Source of the DNA: an uncultured Candidatus Saccharibacteria bacterium
GTDB lineage: Bacteria > Patescibacteriota > Saccharimonadia > UBA4664 > CAZJNH01
Assembly: GCA_964478595.1 (NCBI GenBank)
Contig: CAYZIN010000005.1
Location: 1 to 51,111, forward strand
Direction of reading: 5' to 3'
DNA length: 51,111 nt
Shown here: one piece after another, positions 6,134-47,808 of the stretch
How the letters are laid out: the number at the start of each line of letters is the position of its first letter
Numbering within the stretch: the first letter of the stretch is position 1
The notes under the pieces: model-generated
What the model saw: only the letters and a program-made list of their open reading frames with translations
The model's database searches: none
What the model was told of the DNA's origin: nothing
Made by a program: the position numbers and the translations under genes

Positions 6134-6997
6134 TTGTCAACGCATTTTATGCAATATACCGAAATAGATCGTCGCTCCGACGAATACCCAGATTTGTTAA
6201 AAGAGTTCTCGCGCCCTCCGAAGCGCTTATTTGTGGACGGCGTTATCCCAAAAGCCGAGATGGTCGCTATCGTTGGGAGCCGAAAACCGTCACCTTATGG
6301 AGTAGATCTGACCTATCATTTGGCCTACGACTTAGCCAAAGCCGGTGCAGTGATTGTTAGTGGGTTAGCTATCGGGATCGACGCGGTAGCTCATCGGGCT
6401 GCGCTTGAAGCGGGCGGACAGACAATAGCCGTACTGGGATGTGGACTTGACGTAGGCGGACCGGCCACCAACTCCAGTTTGAGGCGTAAGATACCGCAAT
6501 CCGGAGCCGTTATTAGCGAATACGAGCTTGGCATGCCCGGATTAAAGCAAAACTTTCCGGCCCGTAATCGGATTGTGGCTGGACTTTCTCGGGCGATTAT
6601 AGTCACCGAAGCTAAAGCGGGGAGCGGCGCACTAATTACTGCCGCTTTTGCTCGTGATGACAACCGAATGGTTATGGCATTACCCGGGAATGTGACTAGT
6701 GAACTTTCGGTCGGACCGAATAACCTCATCAGGCAGGGAGCGATTCCCATTACTACTTCGACAGATGTGATTGACCTACTCAACCTTAATCGCCCCACAG
6801 ACCCTGTTACCATCAAGGCCGACGGTCCGGAAGAGGCTCTAATCATGAAGTTAATCAGGCACGGCATAACCACATCGGAAGAAATGATCGAGAAGATGGA
6901 GATTTCGGCCAGCCAATTTGCCCAGCTTATTTCTTTAATGGAGGTCTCTGGCAAAGTTAAAAGCCTGGGTGCCGGCCATTGGTCTTTGTCCCGTTAG
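6134..6997 (+). CDS. dprA: DNA processing protein DprA
   Basis: 287 aa. DprA core GLAIGIDAVAHRAALEAGGQTIAVLGCGLD and NFPARNRIVAGLS. Start is TTG 6134 or ATG 6149. Confidence 0.9.
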   Translation: MSTHFMQYTEIDRRSDEYPDLLKEFSRPPKRLFVDGVIPKAEMVAIVGSRKPSPYGVDLTYHLAYDLAKAGAVIVSGLAIGIDAVAHRAALEAGGQTIAVLGCGLDVGGPATNSSLRRKIPQSGAVISEYELGMPGLKQNFPARNRIVAGLSRAIIVTEAKAGSGALITAAFARDDNRMVMALPGNVTSELSVGPNNLIRQGAIPITTSTDVIDLLNLNRPTDPVTIKADGPEEALIMKLIRHGITTSEEMIEKMEISASQFAQLISLMEVSGKVKSLGAGHWSLSR

Positions 6998-7038: not shown

Positions 7039-8991
7039 ATGCCAGCCAAAAACGTTGTTGTAGTTGAATCTCCAGCCAAAGCCAAGACGATTGAGCGCTA
7101 TTTGGGTAAGGACTTTAAGGTTCTTGCCAGTTTTGGCCACGTTCGCGATTTGCCGAAAAGTAGATTGGGAATCGACGTCGAGGACAACTACCGGCCCGAT
7201 TACATCATCCCTAAAGGGTCATCAAAACAAATTAAGGCGCTGCAAAAAGAATTGTCTGGGGCTAAAAGCATTTATCTAGCCACCGACTACGACCGAGAAG
7301 GGGAGGCGATTGCTTGGCACATCCTAGAGGCTATTCCGCCACAACCCGGACAGGACGTCAAGCGAATTACTTTTACTGAAATTACTAAAGATGCCGTAAC
7401 CGCCGCCATCAAGAACCCACGTCAGATCGATGCAGACCTGGTCAACGCCCAGCAAGCCAGACGAGTATTGGATCGCTTGGTCGGCTATTCCTTAAGCCCG
7501 GTATTATGGAAGAAAGTGCGCAGCGGTCTTTCCGCCGGCCGCGTACAATCGGTTGCAGTGAAGTTAATCGTTGACCGTGAACGCGAAATTCAAGCCTTCA
7601 AACCTGAAGAGTATTGGTCGCTCGAAGCCGAAGTTAGTACCAAAAAGGCAGAAAAATTCGTGGCCAAGCTAGTTAAAATCGATGGCAAGAAAGCTGAGCC
7701 GATCGACAAAAAAACCGCCGAACAGGCCGAAAGGGATTTGAATCAGGCGGACCTTAACGTCGCCGGGTTCGAGACCAAACCAGTTAACCGCAATCCATTT
7801 CCGCCCTACATCACCAGCTCTTTGCAGCAGGATGCCTCACGCCGGCTAGGTTTTACCGCCAGGCGGACGATGCGGGCGGCTCAGTCGCTCTACGAAGACG
7901 GCCACATCACCTATATGCGCACCGATAGTTATAACATTGCTCAAGGGGCCCAAAAAGACATTGTATCTACGATCAATCAGCAATTTGGCGCTAATTATTC
8001 GGAAGCGCGCCAGTTTAAGAAAGCCGTTCGGGGCGCTCAGGAAGCCCACGAAGCGATCCGGGTTACTAACCCAGCCCAGCAAGCTGGCGAGCTAGGGCTC
8101 GGCGGCGATGAGGCTAGGCTCTATGATTTAATTTGGCGCCGCACTCTTGCTTCTCAAATGGCGCCAGCCAGGTTCGAACGTCGAACCATTACCATTCTTG
8201 CCGGTAAATACGAGCTGCGCGCTTCAAATGAAGAGCTCAAGTTCGATGGTTTTACGAAAGTTTACCAGATTGGGCAGGATGAAGATGAAGAAGCTGAAAA
8301 AAGCCAAAAAATACCAAACGTCTCGCCCGGAGATAAGCTTAAGCTCGAACAACTTTTAAGAGAGCAACATTTCACCACGCCGCCGCCGCGTTATAACGAA
8401 GCTTCCTTAATTAAACGCTTGGAGGAGGCGGGGATTGGGCGGCCTTCGACCTACGCGCCAACGATTTCAACGATCATTGACCGAGGCTACGTCCAAAGAG
8501 AAGCTCGTCAGCTGGTGCCGCAAGATATCGGCTTTTGGGTGAGTGATCTTCTAACTAAGCATTTCCCAGCGGTTGTGAACGAAAAATTCACCGCCGAAAT
8601 CGAAGAAGGACTGGATGACATCGCCGAAGGTAAAACCGAATGGCAACCGGTCGTAAAAAACTTTTTTGAACCACTAGAAAAGCGGATTAAAACCGAAAAA
8701 ATCGACAAGGTTGAGATTCCAGTAATCGAAACCGACGAAAAGTGCGACAAATGCGGCCGCCCGATGGTAATTAAGACCGGCCGGTTTGGACAGTTTATGG
8801 CCTGCTCCGGCTTTCCGGAATGCAAAAACACCAAGCCTATCTTAAAGAAGCTGGGAATTACTTGTCCGAAAGATGGGGGAGAGGTGATCGAAAAGCGGAC
8901 TAAACGCGGCCGGGTTTTTTATGGCTGCGCCAATTACCCCAAGTGCGATTTTGCCAGTTGGACCAAACCCGAAGCCGTACCGGCAGATTAG
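7039..8991 (+). CDS. topA: DNA topoisomerase I
   Basis: 650 aa. Toprim N-terminus VVVESPAKAKTIERYLG, TDYDREGE, active-site Tyr region GHITYMRTDS, and C-terminal Cys4 zinc ribbons (CDKCGRP..CSGFPEC and CPKDGG..CANYPKC). Confidence 0.95.
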   Translation: MPAKNVVVVESPAKAKTIERYLGKDFKVLASFGHVRDLPKSRLGIDVEDNYRPDYIIPKGSSKQIKALQKELSGAKSIYLATDYDREGEAIAWHILEAIPPQPGQDVKRITFTEITKDAVTAAIKNPRQIDADLVNAQQARRVLDRLVGYSLSPVLWKKVRSGLSAGRVQSVAVKLIVDREREIQAFKPEEYWSLEAEVSTKKAEKFVAKLVKIDGKKAEPIDKKTAEQAERDLNQADLNVAGFETKPVNRNPFPPYITSSLQQDASRRLGFTARRTMRAAQSLYEDGHITYMRTDSYNIAQGAQKDIVSTINQQFGANYSEARQFKKAVRGAQEAHEAIRVTNPAQQAGELGLGGDEARLYDLIWRRTLASQMAPARFERRTITILAGKYELRASNEELKFDGFTKVYQIGQDEDEEAEKSQKIPNVSPGDKLKLEQLLREQHFTTPPPRYNEASLIKRLEEAGIGRPSTYAPTISTIIDRGYVQREARQLVPQDIGFWVSDLLTKHFPAVVNEKFTAEIEEGLDDIAEGKTEWQPVVKNFFEPLEKRIKTEKIDKVEIPVIETDEKCDKCGRPMVIKTGRFGQFMACSGFPECKNTKPILKKLGITCPKDGGEVIEKRTKRGRVFYGCANYPKCDFASWTKPEAVPAD

Positions 8992-26606: not shown

Positions 26607-26825
26607 TTAAAACTTCAAATTATCGTCGCTCGTTACCTCATTGTACTCATCGGGTGTAATTCTGCCTAGCTCCAGCAAATTGTCCATGTCGCCGATAAAA
26701 GCTTTTTTAACTTTTTCAAACACCGGCGAGGTCTGGTCGCGTAAAACCATCAAGACCCGAACACAATCATCGATGTAGCATTCGACTTCGTCCTCGGTCA
26801 TTACCTTAAGTTCTTCAAGCTCCAC
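26607..26825 (-). CDS. hypothetical highly acidic 72-aa protein
   Basis: It fills the recO-glyQS gap exactly, overlapping the recO 3' end by 11 nt and abutting the glyQS start. No recognised family. Confidence 0.5.
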   Translation of the reverse strand: MELEELKVMTEDEVECYIDDCVRVLMVLRDQTSPVFEKVKKAFIGDMDNLLELGRITPDEYNEVTSDDNLKF

Positions 26826-27531
26826 TCTCTAACATCTCCCGACTACTTAATCTGAGGTTTAGAGTATGCTCCATAAAAGCGTTGCAAATCAAGATCGAGT
26901 GGGCCGCAAGCTTCTCGGCCTCATCAACACTTTGACCGATCAGCAAAGCTCGCCACAACGCCCTGGTTGGCTGATCCATTTTAAACGGCCGGCTTTGGGA
27001 GCACCCGCCATCAACGATCCCGCCAAGATCCGGGTCAAAGTAAAACTCCCCCACCGTCTTGCCGCACACTACGCAGTGATCGAGCTGAGGGTGGTAACCC
27101 AATAAATCCATCAGCCGCAGCTTAAACCCCAATTCCAAAGTTTCACTGTATCCATTATCGTTAGCCGACCCTAGGGTCTCAACCGCCAGGGCGTAGACTC
27201 GTCGCGTCGTCATCCCCTCCTTCACCGTTCGACCCAAAATCTCCGCTAGCAAATAAGCAAACGTTAACGAGCGATAATCTTCGGTTAGGTTTTGAAAGTG
27301 CCGTTTAAGCCTGGCACCGGCGATAACGTCTAGGTTGCGTCCTTTAGCCAGCATCAGTTCGGTTTCACTAAATAACTCAAGGTGCCCCGCCTGCCGGCTT
27401 TTAATTTTACGTACGCCCTTGGCTACCGCCTTTAACTTTCCGTAATCGGGCGTAAGAAAGGTAATAATCCGATCGGCCTCACCAAAATTAAGCCGGGACA
27501 GCACCAGCCCGGTGGTTTTATAGGTTGGCAT
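26815..27531 (-). CDS. recO: DNA repair protein RecO
   Basis: 238 aa. The N-terminal OB-fold segment TTGLVLSRLNFGEADRIITFLT and the zinc motif CVVCGK...C are typical of RecO. Confidence 0.88.
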   Translation of the reverse strand: MPTYKTTGLVLSRLNFGEADRIITFLTPDYGKLKAVAKGVRKIKSRQAGHLELFSETELMLAKGRNLDVIAGARLKRHFQNLTEDYRSLTFAYLLAEILGRTVKEGMTTRRVYALAVETLGSANDNGYSETLELGFKLRLMDLLGYHPQLDHCVVCGKTVGEFYFDPDLGGIVDGGCSQSRPFKMDQPTRALWRALLIGQSVDEAEKLAAHSILICNAFMEHTLNLRLSSREMLESGA

Positions 27532-41793: not shown

Positions 41794-42873
41794 TTAAGTA
41801 ATATTCTTCTGTAAAAATGCGTTAATAAATAAATCGATATTGCCGGACAAAACCGCGTCGGTATCGCTCGTCTCAATATTGGTACGATGATCTTTAACCA
41901 TTTGGTAGGGGTGCAGAACGTACGACCTTATTTGACTCCCCCATTGCTCCGGCCCGCTCTCTACTTTAATTTCCGAAAGCTTCTGCTTATGCTGCTGCTC
42001 CATTAAGGCCGCCAACCGGGCCCGCAAAACTTCCATGGCCTTTTCTTTGTTTTGCATCTGCGAACGTTCGTTTTGGATACTGACCGTAACTTTGGTTGGC
42101 ATGTGCGTAATGCGCACCGCCGAATCGGTGGTATTAACCGACTGGCCGCCATGGCCGCCACTTCGAAAGACATCAATTTTTAAATCTTTGGGGTCGATCT
42201 CCAGTTCCGGTCCGGAAATTTTCGGCATCACCTCAACCAACGCAAACGAAGTTTGACGCAAATTGTCGGCATTATACGGACTTAGCCGGACCAATCGGTG
42301 GACTCCTTTTTCGCTTTTTAGGTTGCCGTAAGCGTATGGCCCATCGATTTCAAGGGTGACGCTCTTGATTCCAGCTTCCTCGCCTTTAGATTGGTCTAAA
42401 ACGTTGGTCTTAAAAGCTTTTTTCTCCGCCCAACGCAAATACATCCGCTCGATCATTTCCGCCCAGTCCTGGGCATCGGTACCGCCGGTACCCGCATAAA
42501 TTGAAATAACGGCCGAGTCCCTGTCGTAATCTCCGGCCATTTTCAATTCAAACTCTTTTTGCCCAAACTCTTTCGCTAACCGGTTGTAGCCCAGCTCCAC
42601 CTCGGGTTTCAAAGAATTGTCGCCGGTTGAGGCTAATTCGAAATTGTCCCCCACCTCTTGTTGTAACTCCCGCCAAGCTTCGATGTGTTTTTTGAGTTGT
42701 GCCTGCTCGGCCGCCACCCCCGCGGCCTTTTCTTGATTCGACCAAAAATCCGGCTTGGCCATCTGCTCCTCTAGCTCAGCCGCCTTTTTTTCTTCGCCAG
42801 CTAAATTGATTTGCTCAATCGCCTGATCGACTCTTTGCTTTAAGCCTTCAAGCTTGTGCCGCAGTTCTTCCAT
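41794..42873 (-). CDS. prfB: peptide chain release factor 2
   Basis: 359-aa single uninterrupted ORF. GGQ is present (SGGHGGQSVN). The RF2-type tripeptide region reads RLSPYN. The C-terminus includes WGSQIRSYVLHPY. Confidence 0.92.
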   Translation of the reverse strand: MEELRHKLEGLKQRVDQAIEQINLAGEEKKAAELEEQMAKPDFWSNQEKAAGVAAEQAQLKKHIEAWRELQQEVGDNFELASTGDNSLKPEVELGYNRLAKEFGQKEFELKMAGDYDRDSAVISIYAGTGGTDAQDWAEMIERMYLRWAEKKAFKTNVLDQSKGEEAGIKSVTLEIDGPYAYGNLKSEKGVHRLVRLSPYNADNLRQTSFALVEVMPKISGPELEIDPKDLKIDVFRSGGHGGQSVNTTDSAVRITHMPTKVTVSIQNERSQMQNKEKAMEVLRARLAALMEQQHKQKLSEIKVESGPEQWGSQIRSYVLHPYQMVKDHRTNIETSDTDAVLSGNIDLFINAFLQKNIT

Positions 42874-42989: not shown

Positions 42990-44120
42990 TTAGCGCTTGT
43001 TCTTCAAAGCTTTAAGCAGGTTGCGCTTAGAACGGATCCAGCCGCGGGTTGCATAACCCAACGCACCGAGACCCATCACACCAGAAGTCGCTTCCGCGCC
43101 GGTTTGGGGCAACGGAGTTGAGCTCGGAGTGGGCGGGGTCGGAATGGTACCGCCGCCACAAGACTTGGTAACATGCGTTAAAGCCACGTTCACAATGTCG
43201 TTAGTGGTGTCGGCCCGGACAAACCCAACGTTCTTAAACAAGTGATCACCACAGGTGATGTCGTCGTTTATTTTAACCTTGAACAAAACGTAGGCTACCG
43301 AACCGGGTTCGTAGTCACCGACGTTAACACCACCGTGGGTGATGTTGTCGGAACCTAGCGGACCGCCGTTCGGATTAGCAGTAGTTTTGATCATCGCGCT
43401 ACCGTTAATGTAAGTCATGTTAGGCGGCAAGTTGTCGCCTACGATCACATTGGTGAGCTTGGTGTTACCTTCGTTTTTGAAACGAATTTCGTAGTCCAAG
43501 GTGTCGCCGGCGTTGGCGGTGTCCTCGGTTACGAAGTTAGAAGTACCGTCAACTCGGACGTACTTGTTGATCGAAAGTAACGGAGCCTTAACTCGAGCCA
43601 AAATAGTTACAGTAGCCGCGAAGTTAAAGCAAGGTTTTTCGTTTTCTAGAACCAAACCGCCATTGGCGACTTGGTCTGAGATACCTTCGGTTACCCAGTT
43701 AGGGTTAGCGTTGGTACCGGTGTTGTGGCGCCATTTGGCTGAACCCGGAATGTATTCCAGGAACGAGTTGGCGTTAGTGTTAACCGTAGCGGTCGAAACA
43801 ACCGTATTAGAGTTGTCGGCCGAAGCGGTACCGGTAATAGTGTGAGTAGCACCGGTGGTGGACGGAACGTCGATTTTAACCTTTAGGTTTTGCGCAATTT
43901 TGCCAGAGTTGGCATCTTCCATGTTGTGATAGGTCACTTGGACCTTAACCACATCATCGTCGTGCGCGTTCACACTATAGGCGTAGTCAACGTTTTGAGT
44001 AACGTTACCAACTTGGGTAACGGACTCGATCGTGACTTGGTCAACGGCGTGGGCCATAACCGGCATTAAAGCCAGCGCGCCCGCACCGATTGCCATAGCC
44101 AATTTCTTAAATAGCTTCAT
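42990..44120 (-). CDS. LPXTG-anchored surface protein with DUF11-like repeats
   Basis: 376 aa. Signal peptide MKLFKKLAMAIGAGALALMPVMAHA. The C-terminus is LPQTG, a hydrophobic stretch, then a basic tail RSKRNLLKALKNKR. A strong AAAGGAGG lies upstream. Confidence 0.8.
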   Translation of the reverse strand: MKLFKKLAMAIGAGALALMPVMAHAVDQVTIESVTQVGNVTQNVDYAYSVNAHDDDVVKVQVTYHNMEDANSGKIAQNLKVKIDVPSTTGATHTITGTASADNSNTVVSTATVNTNANSFLEYIPGSAKWRHNTGTNANPNWVTEGISDQVANGGLVLENEKPCFNFAATVTILARVKAPLLSINKYVRVDGTSNFVTEDTANAGDTLDYEIRFKNEGNTKLTNVIVGDNLPPNMTYINGSAMIKTTANPNGGPLGSDNITHGGVNVGDYEPGSVAYVLFKVKINDDITCGDHLFKNVGFVRADTTNDIVNVALTHVTKSCGGGTIPTPPTPSSTPLPQTGAEATSGVMGLGALGYATRGWIRSKRNLLKALKNKR

Positions 44121-44228
44121 TAAAATTCCTCCTTTTGAAGGAAAAGCTTAAGTTAATATACTTTTTGACTTACAAAAAGCTTTGAAATGATGACAATGTC
44201 AATGGACACTTTTCCGCACCTGCGGATA

Positions 44229-44262
44229 GTCCTTTAAGCCGAATAGTCAAAGATAATCAAGA
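44229..44262. repeat. left arm of the imperfect inverted repeat flanking the GC-rich cassette
   Basis: GTCCTTTAAGCCGAATAGTCAAAGATAATCAAGA matches the reverse complement of 47588-47623. The matching blocks are GTCCTT, a 15-nt exact core GCCGAATAGTCAAAG, and AATCAAGA. Confidence 0.75.
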
Positions 44263-44272
44263 AAATGTTGCC

Positions 44273-44302
44273 CCTCGGAGCCCCCTAGTGGGGACTCCGA
44301 GG
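44273..44302 (-). terminator. strong hairpin after the last cassette gene
   Basis: CCTCGGAG(C)CCCC-TAGT-GGGG(A)CTCCGAGG. On the minus strand it is followed by GGCAACATTTTCTTG. Confidence 0.55.
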
Positions 44303-44338
44303 TCCTTGGAATTAACCTTCCTTGAGAGGTAGTGGAAG

Positions 44339-45724
44339 CTAGAAGCCTCCGGGATCGCCAGAGCCGTGATCGGTTCCAGACTGGTTGCTGTTGGGATCTG
44401 GTGTCCCGCCAGTAGAGCCATTCTGGCCGTTATCCGTTCCGGGATCGTTGGTGTTACACCCTTGGCAACCAGTGTTGGTGCCGTAGGGGTTTGGGGTCAT
44501 TATGGGGCCCCCATCGGGCGGCGGCTGTTGCTGCTGCTCGATGTTTTGCATGCAACCGGGAGAACCGCACCCCGCAGAGGGTGCAACCTGCGCAGGATTG
44601 TTATCCTGCAACGGCTGCTTCTGCGGCCCGTTCAGGTTGACACAAGGTGTCGCCCTGTCCGTCGTCGCGCCCCCGTTGGGACACTTCACCGACTGAGGCG
44701 GCGGTGGTTGGCAGTTGTGCGTGCACGGCGGCTGGTTGATCGGCGGTGCCGGCGGCGTGTTAGGCCTGACCGGCACAATCGCGCGGAAGTTGGGGTTACC
44801 GCAGTCCGCGCGAATCGATGCACCTAGTACCGGGATGCCATCCTTTCTGATGAACAACCAGAGGATGTCATGCGCCGGTACCGAGCGGGCCTGGTCCTCG
44901 GTCAGGACCTGGCCGCCAACGTGGTACGTCGTACCGAACCACTGAGCCGGGACTGCAAACCACACCGGGACGTAACCTGAGCCGTCGAGCGCTCGAGACT
45001 GTTCGTCCTTTGGCAGGGCCGACAACACGCGAGCGCGAGCCGCCGGATTCGCCGCCAAGAAGTCCGCAATGTCCTTATGAGACCTCAACGTCTTTCCGGA
45101 GAAAGCCGCCGAGCCGCGAACTTCGGTGTGATCGTTGAACGGCACTTCGTTGCCGACCTTGATCTCGCCTGGCTGCCAGCCCATCGGGCCGAACACAGCC
45201 ATGGCGATTGCCTTGGGGTCGGAGCATTTGCCTCCGGCCAAGACCGCGCCCTTCGGGCAGGTCGGAACAGACGAAGCTTTGCTGGCCGACGTCGGGGTGG
45301 TTGAGCAGAAGATCCCAACCGCCAGGAGGAGGATCGCTCCCCATCCAAGTGCCCGGTTCATCCTCACCCGCTGCACCCGGCTGCTGTAGTGATCGTTGAA
45401 CCCGATCGCTACCGTCAGCACAAGCGTGACGATGAAGATGGCGACCAGCGCGACCCACCAAGCGTGATCGAGGTGATCGAACCGCCGGGAGACCGCGGGC
45501 CAGACCTTGCCGACGAGCTGGTGGTTGTACAGGTTGTACCCGACCAGCGCCAGCAGAGCCAGGATCGCCCCGATCGGCGGCCAGTACCACCCGTGAAACA
45601 GGATCGGGCGGTCGAACTGGTCGGTCTCGGTCGGGTCGTGGCGCTGTCTTTCGAGGTCGCGAACCTCGTCTTCGAGGTCCTCAACCTCCCTACGGAGCCT
45701 GACTTCATCCTCGATGATCGCCAT
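44339..45724 (-). CDS. hypothetical 3-TM membrane protein with a large extracytoplasmic domain and a Pro/Cys/Gly/Asn-rich tail
   Basis: 461 aa. GAAAGGAGC sits 4 nt upstream of the ATG. It has an acidic coiled-coil N-terminus and three hydrophobic helices (about residues 46-66, 89-109 and 126-142) with an Arg-rich inside loop. No family recognised. Confidence 0.75.
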   Translation of the reverse strand: MAIIEDEVRLRREVEDLEDEVRDLERQRHDPTETDQFDRPILFHGWYWPPIGAILALLALVGYNLYNHQLVGKVWPAVSRRFDHLDHAWWVALVAIFIVTLVLTVAIGFNDHYSSRVQRVRMNRALGWGAILLLAVGIFCSTTPTSASKASSVPTCPKGAVLAGGKCSDPKAIAMAVFGPMGWQPGEIKVGNEVPFNDHTEVRGSAAFSGKTLRSHKDIADFLAANPAARARVLSALPKDEQSRALDGSGYVPVWFAVPAQWFGTTYHVGGQVLTEDQARSVPAHDILWLFIRKDGIPVLGASIRADCGNPNFRAIVPVRPNTPPAPPINQPPCTHNCQPPPPQSVKCPNGGATTDRATPCVNLNGPQKQPLQDNNPAQVAPSAGCGSPGCMQNIEQQQQPPPDGGPIMTPNPYGTNTGCQGCNTNDPGTDNGQNGSTGGTPDPNSNQSGTDHGSGDPGGF

Positions 45725-45737
45725 CGAAGCTCCTTTC

Positions 45738-46574
45738 CTAGAGGATGTTGGACAGTCGGAACTTCTTCTTACCCTTCCGGCGGCGACCGTGGTCGCGTTC
45801 TGCCAGAAGATTCCGTTTGGCCCTCAGCAATTCCCTCTTCCGTTCGAGGAAGGACCTGCTGTCGGACACTTCGCGCACTTCGGGGGCAGGTGCTGCCGGT
45901 TTCGGGGCCAACTTCGGCTCCTCCACCGGAACTTCGGGTCGCTCGTCCGGTTCCGGATCCGCCGATGGTTTCGGCGTTGGTTCCGGTTCCAGCGTGAGCT
46001 TCGGCGGCCACTCGTAGTGGTCGTTCAGCTCTTCGAGCGGGATGATCGCCGACCGATCGTCCAACCCTTCCACTTCAGCGTAGGCAATGCCCCGCCGGGT
46101 GAAAGTGTCAACGACCTTGACCTCCATGCCCTGCCACCAGGCGGTGTAGGGCTCGACCGTTGTGCCGCGTGCCAGCGAACTGGCGACTTTGGCCCGGCGA
46201 TCGATGTTGGTCTTGGCTTCAACCGACAGTCTCCTCTCCCACTCGTCGAGACGATCGAGAGAGGTATCGGTGTTGGCCAAAAACTCGGCGACCTTGACGA
46301 CTTGGTCGGCCCGGACGTCCTCAGCGCGTGAGATCCTTGTTCTCACTTCATTGAGCTCGTCGTGAACCGTCTTCGTCTTGGGTTGATCCGTGTTTGTCCC
46401 AGGCTGGTTTGCCGGGGGAACTTGGGTTCGATCGGAGGGCTCGGGGGGCTTGTCACCTCCCAACCCCGTCTGATCGCTCCCTTTTCCACCTTCGTCGGGT
46501 GGCGCGTCCTTGCCTTCCTCGCGTTCCCGAATTCGCTGTTCGGCGAGTTCGAGGGCGGGGTCGATGTCGGACAT
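45738..46574 (-). CDS. hypothetical protein: disordered Pro/Glu-rich arms, small central globular region, basic C-terminal tail
   Basis: 278 aa. AAAAGGAGCC lies upstream. There is a 2-nt gap to the upstream gene and a 13-nt gap to the downstream gene. No family recognised. Confidence 0.7.
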   Translation of the reverse strand: MSDIDPALELAEQRIREREEGKDAPPDEGGKGSDQTGLGGDKPPEPSDRTQVPPANQPGTNTDQPKTKTVHDELNEVRTRISRAEDVRADQVVKVAEFLANTDTSLDRLDEWERRLSVEAKTNIDRRAKVASSLARGTTVEPYTAWWQGMEVKVVDTFTRRGIAYAEVEGLDDRSAIIPLEELNDHYEWPPKLTLEPEPTPKPSADPEPDERPEVPVEEPKLAPKPAAPAPEVREVSDSRSFLERKRELLRAKRNLLAERDHGRRRKGKKKFRLSNIL

Positions 46575-46576
46575 GC

Positions 46577-47461
46577 TTAGGCTCCTTTTCGTTTGCCCTC
46601 GATAACCCGAAGGTTACCGCGGAACGCGGACACGATCGTCGAGTAGTCGATGCCGTCATCCTCGTACTTACGGAAGATGGCGTCGATGATCTCGACGTAC
46701 AGCTCGGCGCGAAGGTTGATGTCCTCGGCGGCGTCCTGCAGCTCCACCATCCGGTCGCGCAAGTGCTCTCGAATGTCGAGGCACCAGGCGTGACTGTCTG
46801 GGAAGCGCAAGGCGTTGCGTCGGGCCTTGCCGGACGGATCCGGCAGAAACTTCTTGCCGGCCAGCAGCAGCTTGACCTCGGCGCGGAAACCGCCAGACAG
46901 TTCTTCATGGCAGAATCGGCATTGGTCGTTGGCGAGCCAGAGGCGAGAGAGCTTGCGCTCAAACTTCGCCAACAGCTCGTTGCTGCGCCAGCGGAAGTTG
47001 CGGGACGCGCTGGACAGGTAGAGATCGAGCTCTTCCAGTCCGATCCGGATGTAATTCACCGGAATTCGCTTGCCCGCGTCTTCCTCGAACGAGTTGCGTT
47101 CGCCGGGCTCCAAGAATTTCTGGAGCGGATCCGGGTACTGCACCATCGTTCGCTTGTACTTCTCGTAGCGCGGACGGAACGACTGGCCGGAGCGGAGAGC
47201 CTGGTCGGTGTCGATGACTTCCTGGCACCAGGCCAAGTTGTCGTCGTCCTCCTGAGTTCTGCCGCGGCGGCGCGGGATGCGGAGCAAGCTCCGTTCCTTC
47301 GTTCCGTTGTTGGGCGCGGACTCCAAAGCGGCTCTCACCGCATCGGGGTCAACGACCGTTCGCTCGTTACCGTCCGGTTTCCCGGCGGCAGCGAGCACGA
47401 CGTCGAGGGGCTTATTCAGCTCCTTGACCATCGTTCTGGCTTGTTTGCCTGTTCTGGGCAA
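46577..47461 (-). CDS. hypothetical cytoplasmic protein with CxxCH...HxxC residues
   Basis: 294 aa. The TTG start is preceded by GAAGGAGG; an internal ATG (MVKELNK) is an alternative start. Codon usage is GC3-rich. No family recognised. Confidence 0.7.
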   Translation of the reverse strand: MPRTGKQARTMVKELNKPLDVVLAAAGKPDGNERTVVDPDAVRAALESAPNNGTKERSLLRIPRRRGRTQEDDDNLAWCQEVIDTDQALRSGQSFRPRYEKYKRTMVQYPDPLQKFLEPGERNSFEEDAGKRIPVNYIRIGLEELDLYLSSASRNFRWRSNELLAKFERKLSRLWLANDQCRFCHEELSGGFRAEVKLLLAGKKFLPDPSGKARRNALRFPDSHAWCLDIREHLRDRMVELQDAAEDINLRAELYVEIIDAIFRKYEDDGIDYSTIVSAFRGNLRVIEGKRKGA

Positions 47462-47499
47462 AACTGCCTCCTTCTAACTTGGCGGTTGTAGATAGCAGC

Positions 47500-47541
47500 C
47501 TGCCAGCAGCTTACCTGGGCGGCAAGTAAGGGTGCTGGCAG
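47500..47541 (-). promoter_or_regulatory. stable hairpin in the 5' leader of the cassette
   Basis: CTGCCAGCA/TGCTGGCAG (9 bp) extended by CTTAC/GTAAG. It lies between the right inverted repeat and the first SD. Confidence 0.45.
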
Positions 47542-47587
47542 AGTGCTACCCGCAAACGCAGCTAAAAGGAATATTTTTTCTTTTAGG

Positions 47588-47623
47588 TCTTGATTGACCT
47601 TTGACTATTCGGCTGTCAAGGAC
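47588..47623. repeat. right arm of the imperfect inverted repeat flanking the GC-rich cassette
   Basis: TCTTGATTGACCTTTGACTATTCGGCTGTCAAGGAC is the reverse-complement partner of 44229-44262. On the minus strand it contains TTGACA. Confidence 0.75.
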
Positions 47624-47808
47624 CACACGTCATAACAAAAATCCCAGAACTAGCTGGGGTGAGGTTCTTGACTCGTCCGCCGATTGCGGACTGGCCAAGA
47701 GTGGTTTAAAACCACCTCACTGCCTGCCACAACGAGTTAGTGCGATAAGCCTAGCATAATTAGCCATTCTTGTCAACACTAATTATGCTTTCTTCCAAAT
47801 TGGTTATG

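Follow-up and report, generated by a model that had tools for sequence, protein, structure and literature searches.

We analysed a stretch of 51,111 nucleotides (nt) of DNA from an uncultured Candidatus Saccharibacteria bacterium (contig CAYZIN010000005.1, hereafter the window) and focused on the segment at positions 44229-47623, which carries three minus-strand genes, here numbered 1 to 3 in their reading direction. A sequence-only reading of the window had presented this segment as a compositionally foreign, horizontally acquired and self-contained cassette of orphan genes. The segment is indeed self-contained. In all 11 complete loci that we recovered, the same unit occupies this chromosomal place, with a pair of inverted repeats around it and a promoter and structured leader in front. 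Our leading interpretation, which we put forward tentatively, is that it is a leader-controlled envelope operon present across the Saccharibacteria clade, that its boundary repeats may form a long-range stem in the sense RNA, and that it is neither a recent island nor an autonomous mobile element.

Relatives of the unit were gathered from contigs encoding relatives of gene 1 or gene 3, from a repeat scan of a genome collection and from prfB homologues sampled without reference to the cassette. This led to 11 complete loci from independent assemblies (the window, L001, L006, L013, L015, L017, L020, L021, L026, L027 and L028), of which L026, L027 and L028 were reached through prfB alone, and to two loci represented by left-end fragments only (L002 and L009). 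L025 was left out of the presence/absence count because its contig ends at the locus. The records of the relatives name Candidatus Saccharibacteria or Saccharimonadales, and the hosts are highly diverged from the window, with prfB 55-73% identical. The loci share a fixed order: promoter, variable leader, left repeat, hairpin of ~75 nt, one to four fast-evolving genes of no known family, G+C-rich 3' hairpin, right repeat and an LPXTG surface protein gene whose composition is native. The unit always lies in the secA...prfB neighbourhood, its orientation is identical in 11/11 complete loci, and a homologue or analogue of the LPXTG gene follows the right repeat in every one of them. In most loci prfB-ftsE-ftsX-CHAP-ctpA comes after the LPXTG gene, and for the window the flanking order CtpA-CHAP-FtsX-FtsE-M23-prfB ... 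secA given by the sequence-only reading was confirmed by Pfam. The gene upstream of the unit differs between loci (secA, murD, murI or an M16 peptidase gene), and the promoter and leader always go with the unit.

No empty site was seen among the 11 complete loci. The unit is clade-wide and vertically syntenic, not a recent sporadic island, and the idea of a sporadic, recently acquired cassette at a synteny break is not supported. An assembly chimera was ruled out, since the same junction architecture is present in independent NCBI, JGI, ENA and Logan assemblies. A pattern scan of the genome collection returned three real loci and eight chance matches in unrelated or low-GC genomes, and a pattern scan of a metagenome collection only recovered the L015 contig again. 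The window proteins that were looked up and found in a cluster collection (the M23 sequence was not among them) are one-member clusters, which means that close strains provide no record of recent gain or loss. A literature search yielded no description of the locus.

The window and L013 have prfB genes 73% identical and share 44 identical nt across the left repeat region, yet no similarity could be detected between their cassette proteins. The first genes of L006, L013 and L015 fall outside the gene 1 family both with the family profile and in profile-profile comparison; no match of the gene 1 profile to them was significant, and that of L006 was in register at the CxxC...HxxC motif only. A minimal module is found in L028 (6590-9170), where the promoter, leader, both repeats, UGCCGCCCA hairpin and 3' hairpin surround a single gene for a 464-amino-acid (aa), Cys-rich membrane/extracytoplasmic protein, in a host of 55-60% G+C; genes 1 and 2 are absent. 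L028 and the replaced first genes together indicate that the repeats are independent of gene 1.

The foreign composition of the segment was borne out by calculation (G+C 0.612 versus 0.504 for the rest of the window). One-kilobase (kb) windows between 44.5 and 47.5 kb have a G+C of 0.61-0.64 and those elsewhere one of 0.47-0.55, with a sharp step between the two; hand counts had put the flanks at 37-52%, a range that was not reproduced, the computed value being ~50%. The strong bias at third codon positions (GC3) also proved correct, with 0.80, 0.72 and 0.77 for genes 1, 2 and 3 and 0.55-0.59 for the neighbouring M23, prfB, DUF11 and secA genes. The cassette genes are ordered GC3 > GC1 > GC2 (third, first and second codon positions), as in real coding sequence. 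The mononucleotide-normalised tetranucleotide usage of the segment correlates with that of the rest of the window at 0.395, against a background of 84 non-overlapping 3-kb windows with a median of 0.88 and a minimum of 0.71, which makes the segment the strongest tetranucleotide outlier within the window.

This composition anomaly is a property of the module and not of the window genome alone. In ten genomes the cassettes have a G+C of 0.59-0.65 and the host flanks one of 0.45-0.59, and tetranucleotide correlations are 0.64 between cassettes, 0.33 between a cassette and its own host and 0.61 between hosts. In the five genomes for which GC3 was computed it is 0.70-0.82 for cassette genes and 0.53-0.81 for host genes. 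The G+C step vanishes in L001 and L028 because these hosts are themselves G+C-rich. Part of the common signature may stem from a shared bias towards proline, alanine, glycine and arginine and from general traits of G+C-rich coding DNA. Among the observations that would speak against it, the sequence-only reading had named a trio that every relative carries at this locus and with native composition; the position is indeed the same, and the composition is not native, at 59-65% G+C in hosts of 45-59%.

The segment is enclosed by an inverted-repeat pair with a perfect 16-nt core, AGCCGAATAGTCAAAG, at 44237-44252 and its reverse complement at 47599-47614, the only two copies of this core in the 51-kb window. 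Imperfect complementarity reaches ~44222-44265 and 47585-47630 (~35-45 nt), and the outer ends of the pair coincide with the end coordinates that had been assigned to the segment with no mention of a repeat. The left inverted repeat (47585-47630, minus strand; core 47599-47614) contains a small hairpin, GGTCAATCAAGACC, in its inner part (47586-47599) and a TTGACA in its outer part, which is both -35-like and boxA-like; it is conserved in all related loci. The right inverted repeat (44222-44265, minus strand; perfect core 44237-44252) is paired with the left one in every complete locus. When the intergenic zones upstream and downstream of the unit were compared, the best inverted match was the boundary pair in 10/10 loci (16-35 nt, 88-100% identity), and direct reading of L028 gave the same pairing.

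The left and right copies change together between lineages, giving distinct repeat types: GAATAGTCAAAG in the window, GGATAGTCA in L026 and L028, AATAGTCATGG in L017 and GATAATC in L020 and L027. The repeats track the host lineage, not the cargo. Folded as an RNA stem the pair forms 20 base pairs, nine of them with double changes, and one pair is G.U in 6/10 loci, A-U in three and G-C in one. Mismatches between left and right copies that are compatible with G.U pairing number ~12-13 on the sense strand versus 1 on the antisense strand, or ~7 versus 1 when counted as independent events.

The boxA-like part of the left repeat reads GGTCCTTGACA in the window (47615-47625), GGTCTTTGACA in L020 (3770-3782) and GATCTTTGATA in L017 (7652-7664). 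It matches boxA at 7-9 of 11 positions; the consensus used, GYTCTTTAANA, is gamma-proteobacterial (PMC5725501). The right repeat does not have the boxA-like and -35-like outer part. Two further roles for the repeats were considered and rejected: that of a DNA uptake sequence, because the motif occurs only twice in 51 kb, and that of a replication-terminus fork trap, because the cumulative GC skew runs straight through the region.

The promoter read from the sequence (47748-47776, minus strand) consists of a perfect -35 TTGACA (47776-47771), a 17-nt spacer and a -10 TAGGCT (47753-47748) preceded by TGC, and it sits outside the repeat-bracketed segment. A simple promoter scan misses it because the -10 matches at only 3/6 positions. 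The pattern TTGAC(A/T)-17 nt-TAnnnT is present at the equivalent place in L002, L006, L009, L015, L017, L020, L026, L027 and L028. The first part of the leader (47631-47745, minus strand) is a structured RNA of ~115 nt that begins at ~UUAUCGC and ends in an intrinsic terminator-like site, a hairpin at 47658-47643 with a T-run (U-run in the RNA) to ~47633. The computed fold of the leader (47462-47745) has a z of -7.5 against shuffles, and an equivalent leader of variable length is found in all related loci.

The terminator-like hairpin with its U-run between the promoter and the left repeat was seen only in the window (47633-47658) and its closest relative L013 (~7490-7530). Its stem overlaps CCTCAC, the 3' strand of a long-range leader helix GTGAGG...CCTCAC, and in this it resembles the alternative structures of riboswitches or attenuators. 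In L027 (4220-4360) a 15-bp helix formed by GCGGGGATTTGTGAG and CTCACAAACCCCCGC closes the first leader around three hairpins; the GTGAG/CTCAC motif that closes it is found again in the window and at other loci.

The second part of the leader is a long hairpin (47482-47559, minus strand) with the invariant apical sequence UGCCGCCCA; the structured leader proposed earlier for this place is present. In the window the extended base of this hairpin (47466-47570) pairs the Shine-Dalgarno sequence of gene 1 in the computed fold. Alignment of ten loci gave a structure of 29 base pairs, in which 21 pairs show compensatory double changes and the apical sequence does not vary, and one U.G pair present in 9/10 loci places the structure on the sense strand. 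L020 and L027 form a sub-type with another hairpin in place of the UGCCGCCCA hairpin. In L001, L002, L006, L009, L015 and L026 the UGCCGCCCA hairpin is separated from gene 1 by 150-300 nt, a much longer second leader that contains further conserved blocks (GGGGCTG..., GATCTCGC...) and several hairpins. The window has lost this part, and its hairpin stands directly before the start codon.

Searches with Rfam at the gathering threshold found no family for the unit in the window or in eight related loci, and lowering the stringency to an E of up to 10 added only chance-level microRNA and snoRNA matches. At the other end of the unit, a G+C-rich 3' hairpin (44273-44302, minus strand) follows gene 3, and equivalents lie 10-30 nt before the right repeat in L001, L006, L013, L015, L026 and L028. 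The sequence-only reading had called it a terminator hairpin; the hairpin is there, and it is not a canonical intrinsic terminator because no U-tract directly follows it; the scan that picked up the terminator-like site of the leader does not list it.

The three minus-strand open reading frames, their gaps of 2 nt and 13 nt and their Shine-Dalgarno sequences were confirmed as first described, as were the product types (one protein cytoplasmic and containing Cys/His, one disordered and one in the membrane). No known family was found for the three products in Pfam, PHROG, NCBIfam or PADLOC, and Pfam, PHROG and NCBIfam likewise gave no integrase, transposase or phage genes. Strict orphan status, on the other hand, was lost, since gene 1 has 22 relatives and gene 3 has relatives too.

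Gene 1 (46577-47461, minus strand) starts with TTG and encodes a cytoplasmic protein of 294 aa with YPDP and WRS motifs and a putative zinc site, CxxC...HxxC. Two relatives were found by word-seeded search of 5.8 billion proteins and 22 other proteins were matched by profile search of 1.84 billion cluster representatives. In the metagenome JGI 3300056600, the gene 1 relative is present on 22 contigs. Within the family YPDP is invariant, the WRS motif and CxxC...(H/C)xxC are shared and the N-termini vary. The AlphaFold2 model has a mean predicted local distance difference test score (pLDDT) of 83, with core residues 70-294 mostly >90. No structural or sequence match was found in PDB or BFVD: the best PDB hit (E = 0.26, TM 0.12) and the best BFVD hit (E = 0.023, TM 0.13) both read as no match, and weak structural matches to viral polymerases were dismissed as noise. 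Gene 1 belongs to a small Saccharibacteria-only family with a confidently predicted fold. Across 17 relatives of gene 1, the Pfam matches were limited to stray IF2_N and DUF5763 modules at the N-terminus. These extra modules belong to P0006, P0008 and P0018, two being IF2_N-like helix-turn-helix modules and one a DUF5763 Cys-rich motif, and they hint at nucleic-acid binding.

Gene 2 (45738-46574, minus strand) encodes a largely disordered protein of 278 aa with an N-terminal DPAL motif and a basic C-terminal tail. Similarities among its relatives are weak, and the only common features are the DPAL N-terminus, the disordered middle and the basic tail; the window and L001 proteins have no detectable similarity although both are 278 aa long. 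Gene 3 (44339-45724, minus strand) encodes a protein of 461 aa that has a coiled coil at its N-terminus, three transmembrane helices and an extracytoplasmic domain closed by an invariant CGN; a linker rich in Pro and a low-complexity tail that contains Cys complete it. It has one close relative, the L015 gene, to which it is 40% identical over 344 aa; across the gene 3 proteins identity is 37-40% in some pairs and undetectable in others. A profile search of Pfam and PDB with the gene 3 alignment gave no credible match. The gene 3 profile also fails to detect the last genes of L028, L027, L013 and L020, so that 'gene-3-like' refers there to layout only.

These observations can be assembled into a model of the unit as an envelope operon. 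The outside promoter would drive expression through the leader, and in the window the terminator-like hairpin of the leader together with sequestration of the gene 1 ribosome-binding site would give conditional control. The products would form a rapidly diversifying cell-envelope set beside a wall-anchored adhesin-like protein, with gene 3 as a membrane-anchored extracytoplasmic Cys/Pro-rich protein, gene 2 as its disordered partner and gene 1 as a putative cytoplasmic zinc-binding factor that would be dispensable in some lineages. An envelope role is suggested by gene 3 topology, by extracytoplasmic tails of low complexity, by divergence that is extreme and by the LPXTG gene that is always next door. 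The two repeats would pair in the sense transcript to form a 5'-3' stem of at least 20 bp bracketing the whole mRNA, which may serve as a processing, stability or insulation device in the manner of the RNase III stems of rRNA or of the icaR untranslated-region (UTR) pairing. Sense-RNA pairing is the role that we favour for the repeats, on weak support, because the left repeat lies in the 5' leader downstream of the promoter, because the stem has 20 pairs with nine double changes and because of the G.U bias.

Several points weigh against this model. The presence of either repeat in a transcript depends on a promoter deduced from sequence; in the window and L013 the left repeat comes after a terminator-like hairpin, and the 3' hairpin may end transcription ahead of the right repeat. 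Any inverted repeat in DNA 'covaries' when folded as RNA, which leaves the strand asymmetry of G.U as the sole RNA-specific signal, and this asymmetry comes from few independent events (~7 versus 1, p ~0.04). Duplex energies favour the sense strand in only 6/10 loci. The repeat core GAATAGTCAAAG is more conserved than pairing needs, a property that fits protein recognition. On the protein side, the envelope role draws on topology, composition and the LPXTG neighbour alone, the AlphaFold2 model of gene 3 is poor (pLDDT 45.6) and the single gene of L028 resembles gene 3 in layout and CGN motif without significant similarity. Finally, no tested factor gives a mechanistic account of the sustained high G+C.

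The main rival to RNA pairing, still live although we consider it unlikely, is that the repeats are DNA recombination sites for a recombinase encoded elsewhere, which would make the segment either invertible, so that a surface-protein operon would phase-vary against the fixed promoter outside it, or a docking site at which cassettes are exchanged from a shared pool. The repeat does resemble a recombinase core site, being a ~24-26-bp unit with the imperfect dyad CCTTGAC-N9-GTCAAAGG and inverted copies; the promoter sits beyond the segment, the two copies show the concerted evolution that recombination between them would yield, and the cargo, which is surface-exposed and hypervariable, has been replaced between fairly close hosts (the window and L013) while the cassettes keep a common composition. 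However, a single orientation was seen in 11/11 complete loci, with the reservation that consensus assemblies could hide a minority orientation, and no recombinase domain was detected in the proteins scanned, namely the three cassette products and 25 other window proteins. Moreover, there is one site pair per 51-kb window, and a bias of mismatches to sense-strand G.U is not predicted for a DNA site. The specific version in which the locus is a docking site for a pool of surface cassettes of autonomous composition, exchanged or flipped among Saccharibacteria by a host-encoded recombinase in an integron- or shufflon-like manner, is in our view quite unlikely; if true, it would mean that the cell-surface interface of these obligate epibionts is rapidly renewed at a single site from a pool that keeps its own G+C and oligonucleotide signature. 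We doubt even more that the repeats are paired operators through which one DNA-binding regulator, perhaps with the help of looping, controls both the LPXTG gene and the promoter region of the cassette. Conservation of the core across hosts with prfB only 55-60% identical, the overlap of the left copy with the -35-like TTGACA, the position of the right copy 20-37 nt upstream of the LPXTG gene -35 and the concerted change expected of two sites co-evolving with one protein would all suit operators. Such a role leaves unexplained the composition step that coincides with the repeats and the sense-strand G.U bias; the spacing between the right repeat and the LPXTG promoter is not constant (20-37 nt), and gene 1, the sole candidate for a regulator encoded by the unit, can be missing or replaced with no change in the repeats.

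A small transposon or integrated mini-element with terminal inverted repeats, either site-specific like Tn7 or anciently fixed, with gene 1 as an unrecognised transposase, seems very unlikely to us. The 16-35-nt terminal inverted repeats stand exactly at the composition boundaries, the foreign composition is common to copies in different hosts, and gene 1 combines a zinc-binding motif with an unknown fold. Yet the flanks show no target-site duplication, each locus has one copy in constant place and orientation, and, whatever the upstream gene, the unit keeps its promoter and leader, both of which lie beyond the left repeat. Identical repeats enclose unrelated first genes in the window and L013, gene 1 is missing from L028, and the searches returned no transposase or integrase family match and no real IMG/VR match. 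Least probable of all is a recent horizontal acquisition from a high-GC donor, such as an actinobacterial host or an actinophage, possibly with a role in defence or host interaction, as the sequence-only reading had suggested. The G+C, GC3 and tetranucleotide usage of the segment are foreign and its proteins have no relatives beyond a small group, which speaks for such an origin. Nevertheless, the unit is at the same locus in all sampled relatives, the relative-bearing contigs examined are all of the Saccharibacteria-type secA/murD...prfB arrangement, the 1.84 billion representatives gave only 22 matches, and no homologues were found in Actinobacteria or their phages. Neither phage nor PADLOC matches turned up: genes 1 and 3 had no tblastn match in 50,697 phage records, pattern scans of IMG/VR viral sequences gave one chance match (a 242-kb low-GC contig) and then none, PHROGs gave nothing significant for the three products, and a defence role found no PADLOC match at an E of up to 1. 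The 25 other window proteins scanned carried no phage, plasmid-like, defence or recombinase signal, and near the segment no known RNA came up in searches for tRNA, tmRNA and Rfam families. Among the usual marks of a genomic island only the deviant composition is present; patchy presence, a mobility gene, a tRNA target and direct repeats are not, the boundary repeats being inverted. The 'recent and sporadic' reading is therefore already largely refuted.

A foreign composition thus need not signal recent acquisition. Three candidate causes of the lasting high G+C remain, namely replacement from a shared pool, biased gene conversion at a recombination hot spot and selection at the RNA level. Persistence of the foreign composition could come from repeated cassette replacement out of a shared pool by recombination between conserved flanks, or from a constraint on the RNA or DNA itself. 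The contrast between the window and L013 implies at least one wholesale replacement or extreme divergence, and it does not choose among the high-G+C causes. DprA and RecO genes are present in the window (6134-6997 and 26815-27531), which fits proficiency in natural transformation and recombination and bears on the idea of cassette exchange.

The LPXTG surface protein gene of the window (42990-44120, minus strand) is of native composition and lies outside the repeats; its product has a DUF11 domain (PF01345, E = 4e-9) and an LPQTG motif. This protein is itself hypervariable: the window and L013 (3319-4470) versions are 28% identical where prfB is 73% identical, and identity to the proteins of more distant hosts is 43-53%. 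The prfB gene (41794-42873) is a single uninterrupted 359-aa frame from ATG with no sign of a programmed +1 frameshift site, which many bacteria have near codon 26 of prfB. A tRNA gene (Rfam RF00005, 37.4 bits) runs off the edge of the window, so that only its 5' part is present, at 1-55 on the minus strand.

Saccharibacteria live on Actinobacteria as ultra-small obligate epibionts and, to our knowledge, their host-contact machinery is largely unknown. The locus adjoins a wall-anchored surface protein and evolves so fast that orthologues are barely recognisable, and it offers a testable handle on surface variation in bacteria of the candidate phyla radiation. It adds two or more conserved nucleic-acid elements that are new, namely the covarying hairpin, whose loop is invariant, and the inverted-repeat pair with its kilobase-range spacing. 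Pairing of the repeats in RNA would mean that an mRNA operon is bracketed by a stem in the style of rRNA; a role in DNA would make them a new cassette switch or exchange site.

No described system explains a clade-wide, repeat-bracketed block with a composition of its own, and each of the known systems that we compared shares part of its features. Among invertible gene segments (invertons), the G segment of phage Mu and the C segment of P1 are ~3-4 kb long, with ~34-bp inverted repeats and an adjacent Gin or Cin invertase. The unit is like them in having a 3-kb gene segment, ~30-bp inverted repeats with an internal dyad, an outside promoter and surface-related cargo, and unlike them in that there is no invertase in or beside the segment, no gene set reading in the opposite direction and one orientation in 11/11 loci. 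With Tn7 at attTn7 it shares inverted-repeat ends, a constant insertion point and orientation by a housekeeping gene and a foreign composition. It has, however, neither transposition genes nor a target duplication, the conserved unit extends outside the left repeat and the repeats follow the host lineage.

O-antigen and capsule clusters, hypervariable surface-antigen loci known for the JUMPstart/ops leader element and RfaH, also have a fixed place between conserved genes, divergent or replaced content, a composition unlike the host in every strain and a conserved non-coding leader. In contrast, the locus described here encodes one to four small proteins of unknown fold and no sugar-pathway genes, is G+C-rich and not A+T-rich, and lies between inverted repeats; neither an RfaH/ops nor a LoaP element was identified, and the likeness to boxA is a lead only. 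The closest parallel to the stem that we favour is found in RNA. RNase III processing stems surround the 16S and 23S rRNA, and the icaR mRNA of Staphylococcus aureus has a 5'-UTR/3'-UTR pairing. As in these, complementary sequences stand upstream and downstream of a unit (here 1.4-3.4 kb), a strong promoter is followed by a structured leader, the pairing covaries and G.U appears in the transcribed strand. The differences are that the bracketed unit is here a protein-coding operon of foreign composition, for which cleavage and co-transcription are putative, and that the sequence of its repeats is more conserved than pairing alone requires.

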